Source of the DNA: a virus | Taxonomy: Duplodnaviria > Caudoviricetes | DNA: 64,000 bases | IMG/VR virus record: IMGVR_UViG_2660238492_000006 | Span: 1 to 64,000 of that record | Direction: 5' to 3' (one strand) | In this document: piece after piece, positions 2,645 through 41,002 of the stretch | Numbering within the stretch: the first letter of the stretch is position 1 | Layout: every line of letters starts with the position of its first letter | Position numbers and translations under genes: made by a program | The notes under the pieces: generated by a model | Told to the model about the DNA's origin: nothing | Seen by the model: only the letters and a program-made list of their open reading frames with translations | Databases searched by the model: none

Positions 2645-3223
2645 TTAAAATAAAAAGGAATGCAGATTATTGTAGTGTAAATCTGTATATATTACATCAA
2701 AGTTGGACGAGTTATATCTAACATCATTTAGGCTTGGACGAGATATTATGACAATAGGAAAAGTTCCATAGCATTGTTTTTGAAGTGTTCCTTCTCTATA
2801 TAATTTCTCATAAAGTTGCATTTTTATATTAGAAGTGTAATGAGTGTAGTCTACTTCTAATATAATAAAGTATAAGTTATTTTCTAAAGTGAACTCTATA
2901 TAGGCATCTGGTCTAATGAGTCTTTTTAAATATTGAGGTTGGAGTTTTATTTGGCGTATTTCTCCACCTCTTTTCTTTACTACCTTTAGAAAGTCATATA
3001 CCAACAGCTCATGGTCCTTTAATTTCTTTTCTTGATAATAAATCTTTTCTCTTGAAAATTGACTTATATAACTCTTTAATAGTTCCATATCTTCTAACTG
3101 TTTAAGCCTTCTTCTACAACTCTCATAAGTTCCATTAAAGAATAATTCTGTTGCTTGTGGCACGCTTATAGCTTTATAATCTTCTATCCATTTTAAAACT
3201 TGTCTATCCCTCTCTGTTAGCAT
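2645..3223 (-). CDS. replication-relaxation (Replic_Relax)-like protein
   Basis: MLTERD..L winged-helix start, HELLV, IRPDAY, LEVD motifs; coupled to the FtsK gene. Confidence 0.7.
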   Translation of the reverse strand: MLTERDRQVLKWIEDYKAISVPQATELFFNGTYESCRRRLKQLEDMELLKSYISQFSREKIYYQEKKLKDHELLVYDFLKVVKKRGGEIRQIKLQPQYLKRLIRPDAYIEFTLENNLYFIILEVDYTHYTSNIKMQLYEKLYREGTLQKQCYGTFPIVIISRPSLNDVRYNSSNFDVIYTDLHYNNLHSFLF

Positions 3224-31032: not shown

Positions 31033-31681
31033 TCAATGCTTCTATGAATCCATCATCTTCAGTTTCTTCATCTTCATTTTCTCCTGTTATTTCTGCTACT
31101 TCTGCTTTTAATTTAGCTACTCTAATTTTTTGTTCATCACTTGCCAACTCCCAATTTTTATGAAGTAACTCTTCATATTTACTTATTAAATTTTGCAATG
31201 TTGATATAGCTTTACTTTGAGTATTTAAAAAAGTAGCTTGTCTATCCCAAGCAAATTGAAATTCATAAGAGAACTCTTCTTCTGTTTCATCTGTTGAGGT
31301 TTTTTCTGTAGATCTAGTTTTAGATTTAATTTTAGATTTTTTAATTTCTTTTATCATTTCTGATTTACTCTTAACATGCATTATTTTTTGACTTCGAATT
31401 ATCGCTGCAAATTGTAATTGAATATTAGTCCATAAAATATCTAATGTACTTATTCCACATTCTACAGTTTCCTTAATTATATTTTTAGTTGCTGTTGGAA
31501 TATATTTTTTTAAAAAATCTTTTTCTAAATGCTTAGCTGCATCAAAATATTCTCCGTGTTTTAGGCTATTAAGATTTCCAACTGGTGCTCCACCTTTATT
31601 CCCCACAGCATTCTTATTTCCAGCTGGTGCTCCGCCCTTATTACCTTTAGCGTTCTTATTGCCCTTTGGTGCTCCTGCCAT
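30992..31681 (-). CDS. terS: terminase small subunit
   Basis: GAP.GNKNA repeats, KHG, EFQFAWDRQATFL; start taken at MAGAPKG. Confidence 0.85.
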   Translation of the reverse strand: MAGAPKGNKNAKGNKGGAPAGNKNAVGNKGGAPVGNLNSLKHGEYFDAAKHLEKDFLKKYIPTATKNIIKETVECGISTLDILWTNIQLQFAAIIRSQKIMHVKSKSEMIKEIKKSKIKSKTRSTEKTSTDETEEEFSYEFQFAWDRQATFLNTQSKAISTLQNLISKYEELLHKNWELASDEQKIRVAKLKAEVAEITGENEDEETEDDGFIEALNGTAKEDWSDEEE

Positions 31682-31753
31682 TCCCCCATCTCCTTTCATA
31701 AAAATATAGCAAATAAAAAACAGCATTCATTTTTGAATACTGTCTTTGATTTA

Positions 31754-32455
31754 CTATATACTCTGATTTTTTGTTTCATTAATTATTTCTTTTTTATATT
31801 TATAATAAGTGTTTCTTGCAAGGCCTATTAACTTCATTGCTTCAACATCTTTAAGAGTACCTCCAAAATCTTTACTGTATTTTTTTATTTGTTCCTTTGC
31901 TGAAATACTCTTTTTAGTAGTTAATTTAATACCCACTTGCTGCCCTATTTGTTTTCCATTAAGTCTTGCTGTTTCTATTCCTTCTTTTGTTCTTTGCTGT
32001 AAGTCCTTAACTTCCTTTTCAGATTGATTAAAAGCTATCTTTATTTGCTCTTTTGCTAGTGCTAATAAAAAATTATTAATGCCTTCAATAATAAAGTCAA
32101 CGTTCGTTCCTGTCATTTCAAAATTATTTGTAAGTGCTTTCTTATATGTCTCTGTATTTATATGTTGCTCTTTTATGAATACCAACTCAACACCTTTATT
32201 AAATAATTCCTCATATAGTTTAAATCCCTCCTCTGCATTTCTACTCATTCTACTTACAGAATCAAATACAATAGTATCACCTTTAGAAATATTACCTAAT
32301 AACTTTTTAAACTCTTTACGACCTTGAACTTTAGTTCCAGTAAATATTTCATTAATTATTATTGCACTTGGATATAATGCACTAATATTTCTATGTTGTC
32401 TTTCAATACTTTGTTTATTAGTTGATATTCTACAGTAACCATATATTTTATTCAT
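31754..32455 (-). CDS. serine recombinase (resolvase family)
   Basis: YGYCRIST..Q...RQ, GDTIVFDSVSRMSR, RT.EG...A, C-terminal HTH. Confidence 0.9.
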   Translation of the reverse strand: MNKIYGYCRISTNKQSIERQHRNISALYPSAIIINEIFTGTKVQGRKEFKKLLGNISKGDTIVFDSVSRMSRNAEEGFKLYEELFNKGVELVFIKEQHINTETYKKALTNNFEMTGTNVDFIIEGINNFLLALAKEQIKIAFNQSEKEVKDLQQRTKEGIETARLNGKQIGQQVGIKLTTKKSISAKEQIKKYSKDFGGTLKDVEAMKLIGLARNTYYKYKKEIINETKNQSI

Positions 32456-32471
32456 ACTCTACACCTCATAT

Positions 32472-32586
32472 ATTAATAGTATTAAATTTAACGACCGTTT
32501 TATTTGATACTACTAATATATAAGATTTTTAATCTAATGTCAATGACTTTTAATACTTTTCTAAATAACGTCACTTTTAATACTAA
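32472..32586. promoter_or_regulatory. putative res site upstream of the resolvase
   Basis: imperfect IR TAGTATTAAAT...ATTTGATACTA plus ACTTTTAATACT repeated twice. Confidence 0.45.
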
Positions 32587-32842
32587 ATATTTATACACAC
32601 ATATATATTTAATTGAGTTGAGTTGTTCTTGAGTTGTTTTTATGCCTAAAATAATTTTAAAAAACTACTCAAATCTATTAATGAAGCTAAACCTATTGAT
32701 TTTACTAGCTTTGAATGTATTTTCCCATTTTTCTTACAATAAGTAATAACATGGAGAATTACTGATACTATTTTTAAGATACATATAATAGTAAGAATTT
32801 TTTATTTATATACTAAATAAGTACCATTTTATTTTTTACCGA

Positions 32843-33499
32843 TTATAAATCTTTATCAGCTATTTTACCAGCATCCTCTAACATAATATCTTTAAGTCCC
32901 AAATAACGTTTTGTTTCTTCTATAGATTGGTGATTTAAAGCAACTCTAACTTTTTCTATATTATGATTAGAGTTCTCATAAATTGTAGTAGCATAAGTCT
33001 TTCTAGGACTATGCCCACTTATATGTTTTAATCCAATCTTTTCACCAACATCTTTTAATATAGCACTATATGATTTTTGACTTATATATTCATCTCCCTC
33101 ACCTTTATTAGATGGAAATGCAAATTCTTTTCTTTTTTTATTTTTAATATATTCTTCTAAATATTTTTTTAATGAAGAACCTATAATAGCTTTTCTTTTA
33201 TCAGGCTTCTTTCTGTTAGGATGTTCTGCTAAACTACTTTGCCATTGTTTAAATTGCTTACTCTCCTGGATTAGAAAAAATCCTTCACTTAGTGCATCAT
33301 CAATTTCTCCAATTGTAAGTCCAACAAGATCACCTAATCTATATCCTGTAGCCCTAGCTAATAAAAATAATGTTATATTTCTGTCAGCATACTTTTTACT
33401 ATGCTCTATTAATGATTCTTTAAATCTCTTATATTTATTATCTGGTATAGGTAAGGCAGTTCCTTTTTCCCAGTTCCTTTTCTTATCTTCATCCACCAT
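32843..33499 (-). CDS. small tyrosine recombinase (catalytic domain only)
   Basis: TGYR.GD, HSPRKTYA, LNHQS, TKRYLG: the R-H-R-H-Y residues are present. Confidence 0.9.
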   Translation of the reverse strand: MVDEDKKRNWEKGTALPIPDNKYKRFKESLIEHSKKYADRNITLFLLARATGYRLGDLVGLTIGEIDDALSEGFFLIQESKQFKQWQSSLAEHPNRKKPDKRKAIIGSSLKKYLEEYIKNKKRKEFAFPSNKGEGDEYISQKSYSAILKDVGEKIGLKHISGHSPRKTYATTIYENSNHNIEKVRVALNHQSIEETKRYLGLKDIMLEDAGKIADKDL

Positions 33500-33720
33500 T
33501 AATTCACCTGCCTTATATATCCATTCATTCTTTTGTAATAATTACTTTTCATACAATCCTTAGCATTATTAGTTGAAAATTCTTTCTTAAATGACTTACA
33601 ACCACAATGAGCACATGATAAGTATTTTCTATTTTTTATAGTATCTTCAACTTCTTCTTTCAAAAGAATAGTAGTTTTTTTACATCTTTTACATATTAAA
33701 ATAATATAAATACTTTCCAT
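33499..33720 (-). CDS. zinc-ribbon protein
   Basis: CKRC...CAHCGC; translationally coupled to the recombinase. Confidence 0.7.
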   Translation of the reverse strand: MESIYIILICKRCKKTTILLKEEVEDTIKNRKYLSCAHCGCKSFKKEFSTNNAKDCMKSNYYKRMNGYIRQVN

Positions 33721-33771
33721 CTACTCACCTTCTTCCCATAAAAATAACCAGTAAAACTACTGGTTTAAAAT

Positions 33772-34179
33772 TTACATTATAACAACATCATTTTCTTTTC
33801 TATAATCACTTTTAAGTATATTTTTATTGATTTTATCTGCTGCATACTCATTTGTTAATCTTCTAGGTGTATCAAAACTTACTGTAACATCTTTGTTAAG
33901 AACTATATTGCCGTTCTTTTTATTAGTTTTATATATGGATCTATTTCTTTTAACAAAATCTTTATCACTCATATAATTTTTAGATTCTTGCCTTGTTATT
34001 CTATCAACTTCTTTTTTCCTTATTTTTTCAGCTTCATTGGATTTTCTAAATTCTTTTAGATTTCTATGTATGCATTGTCTTACTGTACTAGGCTTACATT
34101 TTAATGTTCTTGCTATTTGAGAAGAATTATAACCTTCAAGATACTTTTCTTTTACTTTTTCTATATCTAACATATACAT
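33772..34179 (-). CDS. HTH DNA-binding protein
   Basis: YLEGYNSSQIARTLKCKPSTVRQCI. Confidence 0.7.
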   Translation of the reverse strand: MYMLDIEKVKEKYLEGYNSSQIARTLKCKPSTVRQCIHRNLKEFRKSNEAEKIRKKEVDRITRQESKNYMSDKDFVKRNRSIYKTNKKNGNIVLNKDVTVSFDTPRRLTNEYAADKINKNILKSDYRKENDVVIM

Positions 34180-34311
34180 ACCTCCTAAAAATGGATATAG
34201 TTATTCCATACCAAAAGTGTGACATTTTTTTATTTTAAATAAGACATTTGTTGCAAATTTTTATCTTATTACTTATTTATATTAATTATAAAAAAAATAT
34301 CGTGCTTGTAC

Positions 34312-34352
34312 CACGACACAAACACGACATTTTTATGACATTTTCACGACAT
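34312..34352 (-). promoter_or_regulatory. phased direct repeats, candidate late-activator operator
   Basis: (C/T)GACA at 34314, 34325, 34336 and 34347, an 11-bp period. Confidence 0.6.
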
Positions 34353-34553
34353 TTTTAAATTTTTTTCTATTCTTTGCAGATGTCTTGGACTTATTCCAGC
34401 TATATTAGCTGCTCTTTCTTGTGTATAACCTTTAATTAATCTCAAATACTTTACCTTATCAATATTTCTATTCAACTTATCAACATATCTTTTATCTTCT
34501 TCTTCATCTGCAATAGAAACATCAATATCTTCCAATATTACTGTTTTAGTCAT
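34344..34553 (-). CDS. HTH regulator (candidate late-gene activator)
   Basis: LRLIKGYTQERAANIAGISPRHLQRIE. Confidence 0.75.
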   Translation of the reverse strand: MTKTVILEDIDVSIADEEEDKRYVDKLNRNIDKVKYLRLIKGYTQERAANIAGISPRHLQRIEKNLKMS

Positions 34554-34734
34554 TTATTATCCTCCTCTTTATTCTTTAACATCTATTTCAGTTTTATAAG
34601 GTTTTAGGATATTCCTAATTATTTAAAAAATTGGATTGTGGCCACAAATCCAATGCTTGCTATTCTTATAATTCAGCAGGATTCTTAAGGACTTTATTCC
34701 TTGAGCAAGTATGGATTTAATTTTAAATCCAATG

Positions 34735-34786
34735 CTTGCTATACTTGCTATACTTGCTATACTTGCTATACTTGCTATACTTGATA
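34735..34786. repeat. 9-bp tandem repeat (CTTGCTATA)x5 plus a partial copy
   Basis: read directly from the sequence. Confidence 0.95.
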
Positions 34787-34924
34787 AAATTATTAGTAAA
34801 TACAAAAATACTTGATGCAATATTCCTGATTTACTAGTATGACGAAGTAACCTTAAATAAAAAATACTGCACTATCAATTGAATAGTGCAGTATAAAACT
34901 TATTAAAATCTATTTTCTAAAAAC

Positions 34925-35494
34925 TTATGAATTAATAAAACCATCTATAAATTCATTCCAAGGTAATAATGGATATTCTCTCATTAGCAATGCTATCACT
35001 TCGATATTAGCTTTGCATTTACCACTTTTCATGTCTGAAATTATTTGTCTACTCTTATTGATTTTCCTTGCAATTTCGGACTGATTGTCTTTTATAAGCA
35101 TAAGTATATCATTGAATGTAAAAGGTTCATTTTCGTATAAGTTTAAAATCTTATTAATAATTCTTGCGGGTACATTAGCTTGATAGTAATCTAATACTTC
35201 ATCAAATAAACTCAATATATTTTTGTATTCTTCTTCAGTAACTTTTCTTGTAACTGTTATGCTGCATACGTCCATATATTGTTTTCTACCAACACTAGGA
35301 AAATATATCCCTATATCTGTTCTATCAAATTCAAAAGTATTACATTTAATATTTTTTCTTTCTAAAAATTCAACTAAATCCTTTCTATTAAAATAAGTTT
35401 CAACAAGATCTTGACTTGGTACTCCCACTATAGTAAAACTAGTAATCTTACCTTCTTCAATTAATTTAAACAACATTTTCTTTTTTAATAACAT
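34925..35494 (-). CDS. hypothetical protein with C-terminal HTH
   Basis: NQSEIARKINKSRQIISDMKSG. Confidence 0.65.
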   Translation of the reverse strand: MLLKKKMLFKLIEEGKITSFTIVGVPSQDLVETYFNRKDLVEFLERKNIKCNTFEFDRTDIGIYFPSVGRKQYMDVCSITVTRKVTEEEYKNILSLFDEVLDYYQANVPARIINKILNLYENEPFTFNDILMLIKDNQSEIARKINKSRQIISDMKSGKCKANIEVIALLMREYPLLPWNEFIDGFINS

Positions 35495-35591
35495 TTTAAA
35501 AACAACTCCTTTATGATATAATTTATTTGAATAATTTATAAAATATTTTGTTTTAGGAGAGTATAGAGTGCTTATCTATACTCTCTATTTA

Positions 35592-35825
35592 TTAATTAAG
35601 CTTTAATATTGCTGTATCAAGACCACCTCTTGCACCTCTTATTAATGTTGCGTTTGTATGCAATTCTTTAACTGATTCTATGAAATTTTCAATGGTTCTA
35701 TTAGTTACTCTTCTTGGAGAATTAGCAAAGCTTCTATATGTTGCTCCTAAACTTTTAACTTCGCCTTCTTTTAATAAAATTTCATAAACAGCTTTTTGAT
35801 TTGAACCTTTAATCATTTTTACCAC
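35592..35825 (-). CDS. hypothetical protein
   Basis: AAGGAG RBS; own upstream region and downstream hairpin. Confidence 0.55.
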   Translation of the reverse strand: MVKMIKGSNQKAVYEILLKEGEVKSLGATYRSFANSPRRVTNRTIENFIESVKELHTNATLIRGARGGLDTAILKLN

Positions 35826-35994
35826 TCCTTAATTTGTTTTAATTTATCTTATAAATATATTGTACGATATTTTCTTACACATTGCAATAGTTTTGTAGGA
35901 AATTTTCTTACAAATATTTCGACAAAAAAGGATTAATAATAAACTTTATACTACACTATTCAATTTTCAAAGAACAATTTTTTATTTAAGTTAC

Positions 35995-36021
35995 TACATC
36001 ATATATACATATTGCGAACTA
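35995..36021. other. dyad recombination-like site TACATCATA-TATACA-TATTGCGAA
   Basis: abuts the TAG of 36019..36312. Confidence 0.6.
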
Positions 36022-36312
36022 ACTTAGTTTCAATTTTGTACCATATTCCTTATTGTGTATGTCTACTAATTTTTTAACTTTTTCTATATAATCAACAAAA
36101 TCATTTTTATCTTTTATAGCTTCATATTTTACTTTTGTCCCTTGCTTATTTGTCTTATATATTTTTTTAACCTTAAATCCATCTTTGCATTTTTCTATAT
36201 ATAACCCTAATATCACTAAATCATAATCTTGCTTTTTATTTTCCTTAAATTCTAAATTAATTTTTGGATATGTTTCTGTAAATCCTAAAACGGATACTGC
36301 AGCATTATTCAT
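36019..36312 (-). CDS. phage early hypothetical protein
   Basis: ORF with RBS. Confidence 0.6.
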   Translation of the reverse strand: MNNAAVSVLGFTETYPKINLEFKENKKQDYDLVILGLYIEKCKDGFKVKKIYKTNKQGTKVKYEAIKDKNDFVDYIEKVKKLVDIHNKEYGTKLKLS

Positions 36313-40683: not shown

Positions 40684-40717
40684 TATTAATACCTCTAATC
40701 CAATTAGCACTATAGTG

Positions 40718-40864
40718 CTAATTGGCTTCTTTTTTTATTACATTTCTTGTAAACACCATAGCATGCATAACAGCTAATACATATTCTTGGCATTCTGTTG
40801 GTATTTGACTTGCTTCATCAACAATTTTACTTATATAACTTTGTTGCATTTCTTTAGTTTCCAT
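40718..40864 (-). CDS. first early leftward gene (Cro position)
   Basis: start at METKEM after AGGAAG; divergent from the repressor. Confidence 0.55.
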   Translation of the reverse strand: METKEMQQSYISKIVDEASQIPTECQEYVLAVMHAMVFTRNVIKKEAN

Positions 40865-40900: not shown

Positions 40901-41002
40901 ATAATATACCATAGTTTTTGTATTGTCAAACCATTTTGTCGTATTTTTATTGTATTTTTAATACACAATTGTATTGACAATACAATTGTGTATATATATA
41001 AT
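40901..41002. promoter_or_regulatory. divergent lysis/lysogeny promoters with a 33-bp palindrome
   Basis: + TTGACA-17-TATAAT (40974-41002); - TTGACA at 40929-40924; IR ATACACAATTGTATTG-A-CAATACAATTGTGTAT. Confidence 0.75.

Follow-up and report, generated by a model that had tools for sequence, protein, structure and literature searches.

This analysis concerns a cassette of two genes in a 64-kb stretch of the viral record IMGVR_UViG_2660238492_000006, a stretch that I will call the window. The cassette is transcribed on the minus strand and is bounded on the left by an end element E3 and on the right by an end element E5. All genes between 29.7 and 41 kb lie on that same strand; an early/replication region with SSB and other genes comes first, and recombinases and terminase follow. 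Along the direction of transcription the cassette reads E5, promoter and palindromes, a gene of 74 amino acids (aa), a small hairpin, a gene of 189 aa, and E3, with the positions given in Table 1. The original prediction, made from the letters of the window, took the two ends to be an attL/attR pair of attachment (att) sites with a duplicated 6-bp core, left by a single integration event at the centre of a palindrome. The cassette is real and is of a more general kind than was seen then; it does not look like an integration scar, and its ends may form a terminator and the corresponding antiterminator.

Table 1. Features of the cassette and its end elements, in the order of transcription, with positions counted in the window.
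Feature	Position	Strand	Sequence or remark
E5, upstream end element	35937..36004	-	Inverted, hairpin-disabled counterpart of E3; inverted repeat with 34852-34905, extended by alignment
Near-invariant motif within E5	35957-35979	+	TATTCAATTTTCAAAGAACAATT; 23 nucleotides (nt), exact in 28 viral-contig stretches
Arm within E5	35947-35965		Part of the inverted repeat
Right AAACTT copy, the 'core' of the original prediction	35941..35946		RNA strand AAGUUU, pairs with the E3 copy by G·U and U·G
Two 23-bp near-palindromic direct repeats	35860-35882, 35893-35915		Overlap the predicted promoter; 87% identical; palindromy read from the sequence
Cassette promoter, predicted	35887..35859	-	TTGCAA-17-TACAAT; consensus match only (promoter scan)
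74-aa gene (77 aa from GTG 35825)	35592..35816	-	Open reading frame (ORF); 225 bp in the pCBI annotation; small helical protein
12-bp intergenic hairpin	35556..35586		Between the 74-aa and 189-aa genes
189-aa gene	34925..35494	-	N-terminal alpha/beta domain and C-terminal XRE-type helix-turn-helix (HTH)
Left AAACTT copy	34896..34901		Sequence read
E3, downstream end element	34838..34905	-	Terminator hairpin 34864-34894; U-tract 34854-34863 on +

Both ORFs named in the original prediction are present in the ORF list. The one that had been placed at 35592..35825 stands as an ORF, with its start moved to the more likely ATG at 35816, which lies behind AAGGAG and is the start annotated in the plasmid pCBI. 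The 74-aa protein has no match in Pfam, PHROG or PADLOC, its structure model, built from the single sequence, is of low confidence (predicted local distance difference test, pLDDT, 55.5), and in Atlas it falls solely into unnamed clusters (0.90-0.91). Its partner in the plasmid pCLD is 53% identical. The 189-aa protein gives a weak HTH_3 match in Pfam, and it has 54 homologues, which in C. botulinum and C. sporogenes go by the name of XRE/HTH regulators. Its model has a pLDDT of 91.6; the HTH part resembles DdrO/434-type domains (probability 0.87-0.99), with no match in the PDB at E<=0.001, and the N-terminal domain has an ACT-like resemblance (probability 0.44-0.75) that can serve as a lead only. 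The search of the phage collection with DNA gave no near match, and the distant search gave only a 94-nt match, at the level of chance, to a Staphylococcus phage; the 189-aa protein had no tblastn match in that collection and no related loci in viral contigs. An alignment-based search of genome contigs with the 189-aa family turned up one sole relative, 29% identical, in Romboutsia (L041). PHROG families are assigned to the neighbouring genes and not to the two genes of the cassette, and the two matches to Rfam are far under the gathering scores and were taken as chance.

The HTH protein of 189 aa is probably the regulator of the cassette, and the two 23-bp palindromic repeats, judging from their sequence, are putative operators for it. 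The 12-bp hairpin between the genes is missing from pCLD, whose copy of the cassette has only 16 nt between the two genes. Taken together, the anatomy of the cassette suggests that it is probably an autonomous accessory unit that regulates itself.

The flanks of the cassette are located as had been claimed, AATTGAATAGTGCAGTATA-AAACTT at 34877-34901 and AAACTT-TATACTACACTATTCAATT at 35941-35965, with a spacing of 1,045 bp between the starts of the AAACTT copies, and a pattern scan of the window confirms 19-nt arms with one mismatch. When up to three mismatches were allowed, the 19-nt arm was found at two sites in the 64 kb, exactly at 34877-34895 on the plus strand and with one mismatch at 35947-35965 on the minus strand; in shuffled sequences the average was 0.18 matches, with as many as two in 2 of 100 shuffles. 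The claim that the arms enclose the same ATA-N6-TAT core as other sites found no confirmation in a palindrome scan of the window, which yielded 18 palindromes of at least 12 pairs and no further site that has these arms.

The length of the inverted repeat was underestimated in the original description. A repeat search extends it over 54 nt (34852-34905 and 35937-35990) at 80% complementarity, and BLAST with global alignment lengthens it to about 68 nt (~34838-34905 against 35937-36004) with one indel. At a length of 54-68 nt it therefore spans the 6-mer, reaches 4 nt deeper into the cassette (ATTA/TAAT) and extends about 45 nt further outward. The inner 10 nt of E3 (34896-34905) and the outer flank both belong to the inverted repeat with E5, and contigs that carry other cargo match E3 exactly as far as 34905 in three sequencing runs.

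The left arm is also one half of a local hairpin, absent from the original prediction; it comprises 13 pairs, and on the minus strand TTTTTATTTA comes after them. Its RNA fold has an energy of -20.4 kcal/mol (z -5.84), which 0 of 200 shuffles matched, and on the strength of this fold I read it as the intrinsic terminator of both cassette genes. It lies 30 nt past the stop of the 189-aa gene and is therefore the intrinsic terminator of that gene. Predicted from its fold and T-run, the left hairpin is a strong intrinsic terminator for the genes of the cassette. In the right copy, the 11 central bases, those that would close the hairpin, differ (TTCAAAGAACA versus GATAGTGCAGT), and there is no fold (z -0.25).

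Many loci (e.g., L013, L017 and L020) also have a semi-conserved box (~TTCGCAAT) after the T-run of the terminator and an inverted copy of it before E5, the latter at 36008-36024 in the window. The tandem cassettes of L020 have two such boxes, opposed and about 45 nt apart. With inverted copies of the box outside both E3 and E5, the inverted symmetry therefore reaches past the hairpins.

The circular 40-kb plasmid pCBI, from C. botulinum 202F, shares 99.985% identity with the window over 6,461 nt, and its annotation includes terminase and integrase-family genes; given this near-identity and these genes, the element in the window is therefore a phage-plasmid of the C. botulinum group. The viral contig L004 has the same backbone, with 92.9% identity over 31568-34851 of the window and homology that comes back at 35948. 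At the same position, however, it carries different cargo (L004 2176-4026): a 226-aa gene without a family, a gene for a 376-aa protein with XRE and M78 peptidase domains, and a 79-aa gene. The 376-aa protein matches the RmrA models of PADLOC with an E-value of 5.9e-104. Together, the 226-aa and 376-aa proteins make a candidate defence pair within the hotspot.

Six large Clostridium plasmids hold the two-gene cassette at 72-74% identity, and in all six the homology extends from ~34857-34859 to ~35985-35986, both end elements included. In the two of the six that were read beyond the ends, pCLD and pRSJ11_1, the DNA there has no relation to that of the phage. Ends of the same type surround other cargo in L012 (three genes), in L061 (two genes) and in one contig of run X2 (323 nt). 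In L046 the flanking HTH gene is 96% identical, but all of 37948-34746 has been replaced by other genes and the motif is missing; with the whole region replaced, L046 is therefore uninformative on an empty site.

Lambdoid phages have accessory genes called morons, each with its own promoter and terminator and lying between two phage genes. The cassette likewise lies between co-oriented phage genes and is absent or replaced in close relatives (L004, L046). It has its own intrinsic terminator, a hairpin with a U-tract, and, upstream of its genes, TTGCAA-17-TACAAT with two operator-like palindromes, a predicted promoter that is a consensus match only. I conclude that the stretch is a discrete, self-contained accessory cassette, located at a site where phages and plasmids of the C. 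botulinum group hold varied cargo, a hotspot. To this extent the original interpretation stands: the cassette is discrete, as the swap in L004 and the six plasmids show, and its junctions lie within a few bases of those first given.

The other half of that interpretation, an attL/attR pair with a duplicated core, is not supported. Written in the orientation of transcription, the 6-mers at the 5' and 3' ends are AAGTTT and AAGTTT in the window and pCBI (a direct match of 6/6), AAACTT and AAGTTT in pCLD and pRSJ11_1 (4/6), the same pair in L061 (4/6), and AAGCTT and AAGTTT in L012 (5/6). Among the contexts read, the direct 6/6 repeat is thus confined to the window and the near-identical pCBI; the relation conserved across contexts is therefore inverted (0-2 changes) and not direct. 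Palindromy by itself makes four of the six bases (AA..TT) match, either way round, and the two central bases are AC or GC in the other cassettes (pCLD, pRSJ11_1, L012, L061). Inside the 6-mer, only ATT/AAT is common to cassettes of four cargo types, so there are no recognisable cassette-side recombinase arms.

No empty site was found. Scans with the exact arm, in which the literal rebuilt junction was not searched, gave no site with two arms (one stretch in viral contigs, and eight in metagenome contigs, seven of them unrelated chance matches), and a gapped pattern with the motif next to the hairpin gave 0 in viral contigs. In the contigs of four sequencing runs, where many bins were without cover, the flanks were never joined directly, and one contig had 323 other letters between them. 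The same contigs contain no circle or deletion junction, so that the check first proposed, for reads across the empty site or across the circle junction, returned neither within the bins that were covered. The missing empty site is weak evidence; a precise insertion between the arms is conceivable, with nothing positive to speak for it. In the window, a 218-aa Phage_integrase protein is encoded 1.4 kb from the cassette, and the plasmid contexts and many of the phage contexts show none within the DNA read.

The layout of the window recurs in about 40 cassettes with unrelated cargo: a motif of 19-23 nt with its arm (E5), a promoter of the cassette's own with the cargo, and the terminator (E3). 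The core of the right copy, TATTCAATTTTCAAAGAWCAATT, is found exactly in 28 viral-contig stretches, usually preceded by ATACCGyAy, and the motif is low in copy number, with one to three per replicon. On the cargo side a co-oriented ORF starts within 400 nt in 26 of the 28 instances, the other two having ended without sequence there. The first cargo genes are mutually unrelated, and Pfam families could be named for 11 of the 26 scanned: HEPN, PLD, ADP-ribosyltransferase, SLATT, NUDIX, Barstar, Mn catalase, HTH_60, M78 with HTH, and two domains of unknown function (DUFs). When pairs of loci share one side, the mosaic breakpoints fall at the edges of the conserved block (-11, -12, +7, +26 and +48 from the motif). 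In 7 of 7 loci tested, the hotspot is followed by a gene of phrog_36, 'transcriptional regulator'; Pfam gave nothing above its cut-off for the regulators downstream of the hotspot, which PHROGs did match.

Looking at single loci, the first genes of L016, L018, L025, L026, L030, L038 and L040 are of the types HEPN, PLD-like nuclease, ADP-ribosyltransferase-family, SLATT, NUDIX, Barstar-like and Mn catalase. On the plasmid pCLL (L062, CP001057.1), positions 3001-3073, an E5-like copy (86.8% over 76 nt) stands before three small genes, one of them annotated as a putative PemI antitoxin; the copy borders on the toxin gene cluster, with the annotated ha70 gene some 1.6 kb away. Plasmids from C. estertheticum, C. 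beijerinckii and C. butyricum also have matches, to E5 only. As to what the motif itself might be, a -35 element, a dif/Xer-like site, a CRISPR repeat, parS and a group-5 sigma promoter were dismissed, by eye, on grounds of spacing or dissimilarity.

To define a set of E5 elements, the motif was relaxed to at most two changes, giving 42 copies with at least 600 nt downstream; copies from the same record or nearly identical to others (L001, L002, L027, L032, L039, L042, L045, L048 and L050) were dropped before the count. A terminator of one family lies 241-1617 nt downstream of 37 of the 42, either of the form ATACCG..TATTCA-loop-TGAATA..CGGTAT with a T-run or, as in the window, an ACTGCAC variant. 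An extended -10 sequence (TGnTAnnWT) occurs 8-130 nt past E5 in 30 of 44 copies, most commonly at a spacing of 19 nt. RNAs initiated within the cassette would therefore lack E5.

The arm beside the motif and the 5' arm of the terminator are complementary. I compared the E5 and E3 that belong to one cassette with mixed pairs, by local score (mean 13.9 for own pairs versus 11.4) and by duplex energy (mean -24.7 versus -17.2 kcal/mol), and in both cases 0 of 5000 permutations reached the observed value. Several positions of the helix, at least five, hold two types of Watson-Crick pair with few mismatches. At one such position there are 16 A-U, 13 G-C, 4 G·U and 1 A·C, and at another 16 G-C, 17 A-U, 3 G·U and 1 A·C. 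In 37/37 cassettes the E5 arm resembles a perfect complement of the 5' arm more closely than it resembles the terminator's 3' arm, and it out-pairs the terminator's own stem for the 5' arm in 36/37; it is therefore not merely a copy of the 3' arm. Judged by duplex energies, E5 forms a more stable helix with the 5' arm than the terminator's own in 34/37 cassettes.

The deviations from Watson-Crick pairing depend on the strand. On the sense strand, the E5:E3 helices have G·U and A·C in the ratio 34:6 by a rule that treats both alike (p 8e-6) and 43:8 by a looser rule, as compared with only ~1.2:1 expected from composition (calculated from a GC skew of about -0.3 and an AT skew of about -0.2 on the plus strand). 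The direct AAACTT pair of the window is such a case of G·U with U·G, one AAGUUU facing another. Minimum free energy (MFE) folds were calculated for transcripts with two different starts. If the transcript begins 60 nt ahead of the motif's end, E5 is paired with the terminator's 5' arm in 24/37 cassettes, in the window over 19/19 bases of the arm; if it begins 40 nt after the motif, the terminator is formed in 36/37. The ends thus have what one looks for in a terminator and its antiterminator, mutually exclusive helices that share one strand, and covariation, in cassettes that are related to one another and with collapsed counts of G·U that are borderline.

From the computed architecture, covariation and folds I infer an RNA switch and a mode of exchange: the cassette may be a portable one of the moron type, whose ends serve both as an antiterminator/terminator pair and as handles for recombination, a reading to which I would give slightly less than an even chance. 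That cassettes of Clostridium phages and plasmids carry a long-range antiterminator acting in cis, with an arm that co-evolves with the 5' arm of the terminator over up to 1.6 kb, is a more tentative claim, possible and yet rather doubtful.

The proposal would work as follows. The cassette sits in a conserved hotspot for cargo, which has the early genes on one side and, on the other, the regulators ahead of the packaging genes, and the palindrome would be the cassette's own pair of end elements and not an interrupted target site. E3 would be the terminator, and E5 would be its inverted copy, with the near-invariant motif in place of the arm that would close the hairpin; with that replacement, the arm of E5 is left complementary to the terminator's 5' arm. 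Transcripts of the early operon would include E5, which would pair with the 5' arm and either block the hairpin (antitermination) or form a long duplex that loops out the cargo, in both cases letting lytic phage transcription pass. Transcripts from the cassette's own promoter would start past E5, lack it, and stop at E3, and the stop would keep a cassette that is expressed in the lysogen from driving the phage regulators downstream. The conserved ends might, in addition, provide short identical stretches for swapping cassettes between phages and plasmids, in the manner of the promoter-early stem-loop (PeSL) elements of T4-type phages, and the near-invariant motif of 19-23 nt may be a handle for a factor or for the exchange.

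Several points weigh against this proposal. The pairing would have to span 240-1600 nt, the local hairpin is favoured kinetically, and MFE calculations ignore both kinetics and translation; known antiterminators act locally. Even in the folds of whole transcripts the terminator is retained in 13/37 cassettes, and 5 of the 42 copies of E5, that of L004 included, have no well-matched terminator. The comparisons at 37/37 and 36/37 are favoured by the way in which the partner in E3 was located, through its complementarity to E5, and the relatedness of the cassettes makes the permutation tests and the raw G·U counts overstate independence. When the counts are collapsed to distinct events of position and type, the ratios become 15:6 (p 0.08) and 20:8 (p 0.036), which is borderline. 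The near-invariance of the motif beside the arm is left unexplained by the model. The RNA switch is suggested by sequence and predicted folds, the promoters are consensus matches only, and recombination at the ends is suggested by the mosaic boundaries.

The borderline counts are among the points that speak for a reading in terms of history only, by which the ends are two copies of one family of terminators, maintained through homologous recombination as in PeSLs, E5 is a disabled terminator, and the pairing has no function as RNA; the E5 arm and the 5' arm would match since both travel linked to the cargo. The conserved blocks at mosaic boundaries, the reuse of the terminator family across phages, the presence of one to three motif copies per replicon, and the precedent of PeSLs, so far as passages of the two papers on them go (PMC2839356, PMC4122927), are all in keeping with it. 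However, linkage can keep a match and cannot make one, and at least five positions have two Watson-Crick types; moreover, the E5 arm beats the terminator's own 3' arm as complement of the 5' arm (36/37), and the raw excess of G·U is 34:6. The ends are also inverted, not only in the hairpin but over 10 nt on its inner side and ~25 nt on its outer side, so that a simple excision of the PeSL type between them is impossible. I consider history alone an unlikely explanation, though one to be taken seriously. The sharp recurring boundaries (TTATT / cargo / AATAA in five cargo contexts) point in a different direction, to a precise DNA mechanism that inserts cargo between the arms, either a hairpin-directed, integron-like recombinase or the movement in trans of a non-autonomous element with terminal inverted repeats of ~50-68 nt. 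Here the motif fused to a half-hairpin would resemble a hybrid site, the hairpins are imperfect, like attC sites, tandem cassettes occur (L020, L026 and pRSJ11_1), and the window has the 218-aa tyrosine recombinase and a serine recombinase 1.4-2.4 kb away. Yet the scans and contigs described above, which did not take in the literal rebuilt junction, gave neither an empty site nor a circle junction, the outer ends have no visible target-site duplication, no recombinase is consistently near the motif in the loci read (seven have the phrog_36 regulator past the cargo), and the cassettes have promoters of their own, unlike those of integrons. Arms that vary and co-vary between cassettes fit base pairing better than recognition by one protein, and a G·U bias by strand is not expected of a site that acts as DNA. 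Such a mechanism seems to me quite improbable.

The remaining two explanations also invoke the recombinases nearby. The single site-specific integration first proposed, at the centre of a palindromic att site with duplication of the AAACTT core, is attractive in the window, where the 6-mer repeats directly and without a mismatch between 19-nt arms that are inverted, a gene for a tyrosine recombinase is close by, and relatives have other cargo at the same position. Against it, the 6-mer is not direct in pCLD and pRSJ11_1, which are diverged copies of the same cassette, nor in L061 and L012; the inverted repeat runs on through the 6-mer; conserved arms on the cassette side are lacking; the left arm belongs to a functional-looking terminator; and neither the arm scans of viral and metagenome contigs, nor the gapped pattern, nor the contigs of four runs gave an empty site, the literal junction lying outside that search. 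An attL/attR pair from one integration is not supported, and I think it very unlikely. The inverted repeats could also be crossover sites for a serine recombinase of the DNA-invertase family, making the cassette an invertible segment, and a gene of phrog_125, 'DNA invertase', does lie at 31754-32455. However, the orientation of the cargo to E5 and E3 is constant in the window, pCBI, pCLD, pRSJ11_1, L012 and L061, no strand-change joint appears in the contigs of four runs, the layout is found also where the ORFs listed within ~2.6 kb of the motif include no recombinase (among the loci whose neighbours were viewed), and an inverted cargo promoter would fire against the early operon. I find inversion scarcely credible.

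The antiterminator/terminator proposal can be set beside known systems, among them PeSL cassettes. As described in passages of Arbiol et al. (2010; PMC2839356) and Comeau et al. (2014; PMC4122927), PeSLs are intergenic motifs of T4-type phages that include a terminator stem-loop and flank variable ORFs, mostly of unknown function; they mark the points at which related phages exchange modules, in plastic regions, and as direct copies of promoter plus terminator they can recombine with each other to give mini-circles. The cassettes considered here are similar, so far as those passages describe PeSLs, in that a conserved intergenic motif with a terminator stem-loop flanks variable ORFs and mosaic breakpoints fall at the motif. 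By the same passages they differ in that their ends are inverted, the upstream end having lost its hairpin and gained a near-invariant motif, in that the arms co-vary within each cassette, in that the hosts are temperate Clostridium phages and plasmids, and in that the contigs of four runs, with many bins uncovered, held no circles.

The resemblance to a moron lies in an extra unit of transcription that has a promoter, here a predicted one, and a strong intrinsic terminator, stands among co-oriented phage genes and is missing or replaced in relatives. In lambdoid phages, transcription reads through by means of polymerase modified by N or Q. Classical morons are not known to have a matched upstream element, whereas each cassette here appears to carry its own complementary arm. 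The cassettes of integrons have an attC hairpin at their 3' end, are inserted at attI by IntI, and are promoterless, under a common promoter. As in integrons, variable units of one or a few genes end in an imperfect hairpin of conserved shape and variable sequence, the upstream junction resembles a conserved site with half a hairpin, and tandem cassettes occur. Unlike integron cassettes, these have their own promoters (the extended -10 in 30/44), two end elements each and a terminator hairpin with a U-tract, and free or empty sites were not found in scans made without the literal rebuilt junction. No integron (IntI-type) integrase stands next to the cassettes in the loci read, in which no systematic search was made.

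Known attenuators are compact, within tens of nucleotides, and work by mutually exclusive RNA helices. The 5' arm of the terminator would likewise have two possible partners, but the alternative partner is 240-1600 nt upstream, with the whole cassette in the loop, and the choice would follow from where transcription starts. Finally, the defence hotspots of prophages and satellites are defined by flanking core genes. The hotspot here similarly presents varied defence-like or accessory genes (a match to RmrA models, HEPN, PLD, SLATT and others) at one conserved position, whereas its marks are specific end elements, non-coding ones, which accompany the cargo when it moves into unrelated plasmids. 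A literature search found no description of such an antitermination device among the matches listed, which is weak as to novelty. I take the cassettes to be a variant of morons and of PeSL-like boundary elements, with a potentially new regulatory principle.

Temperate phages and plasmids gather genes for defence, toxin-antitoxin and other accessory functions at hotspots, and how these escape disrupting the local transcription has rarely been addressed beyond antitermination of the lambda type. If the proposal is true, a cassette would be silent to its neighbours in the lysogen and transparent in lytic growth, and any cargo would be plug-and-play amid an essential operon. The signature, a motif with an arm upstream and a matching terminator downstream, marks about 40 cassettes, both within the C. 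botulinum/sporogenes group and on further Clostridium plasmids, and it is a practical means of finding accessory cargo in these elements. It also corrects the reading as an integration scar, attractive and unsupported.

Some further features near the cassette deserve mention. A 9-bp tandem repeat (CTATACTTG) at 34723-34794 lies upstream of a 69-aa HTH gene and inside a probably spurious 65-aa ORF that reads SIASIASIA. By the runs of SIA in the ORF translations, the window has two copies more than L004, and L046, judged by eye, has at most two. Close to this repeat, a 22-nt element is duplicated at 34646 and 34725, and the region 34723-34794 may be a variable regulatory one. Just past the stop of the 69-aa gene (34344) and upstream of a 135-aa gene is a hairpin of 19 pairs with T-runs (34293-34334), which resembles another strong terminator on the same path of transcription.

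The serine recombinase (phrog_125, 'DNA invertase', 233 aa) and the tyrosine recombinase (218 aa, Phage_integrase) lie side by side at 31754-33499, with a gap of 388 bp and upstream of the terminase genes; the pair may resolve multimers of the circular phage-plasmid. Elsewhere in the window, two strong palindromes of 15 and 16 pairs (40697-40728 and 40961-40993) stand between divergent cro-like and cI-like genes and are probably immunity operators.

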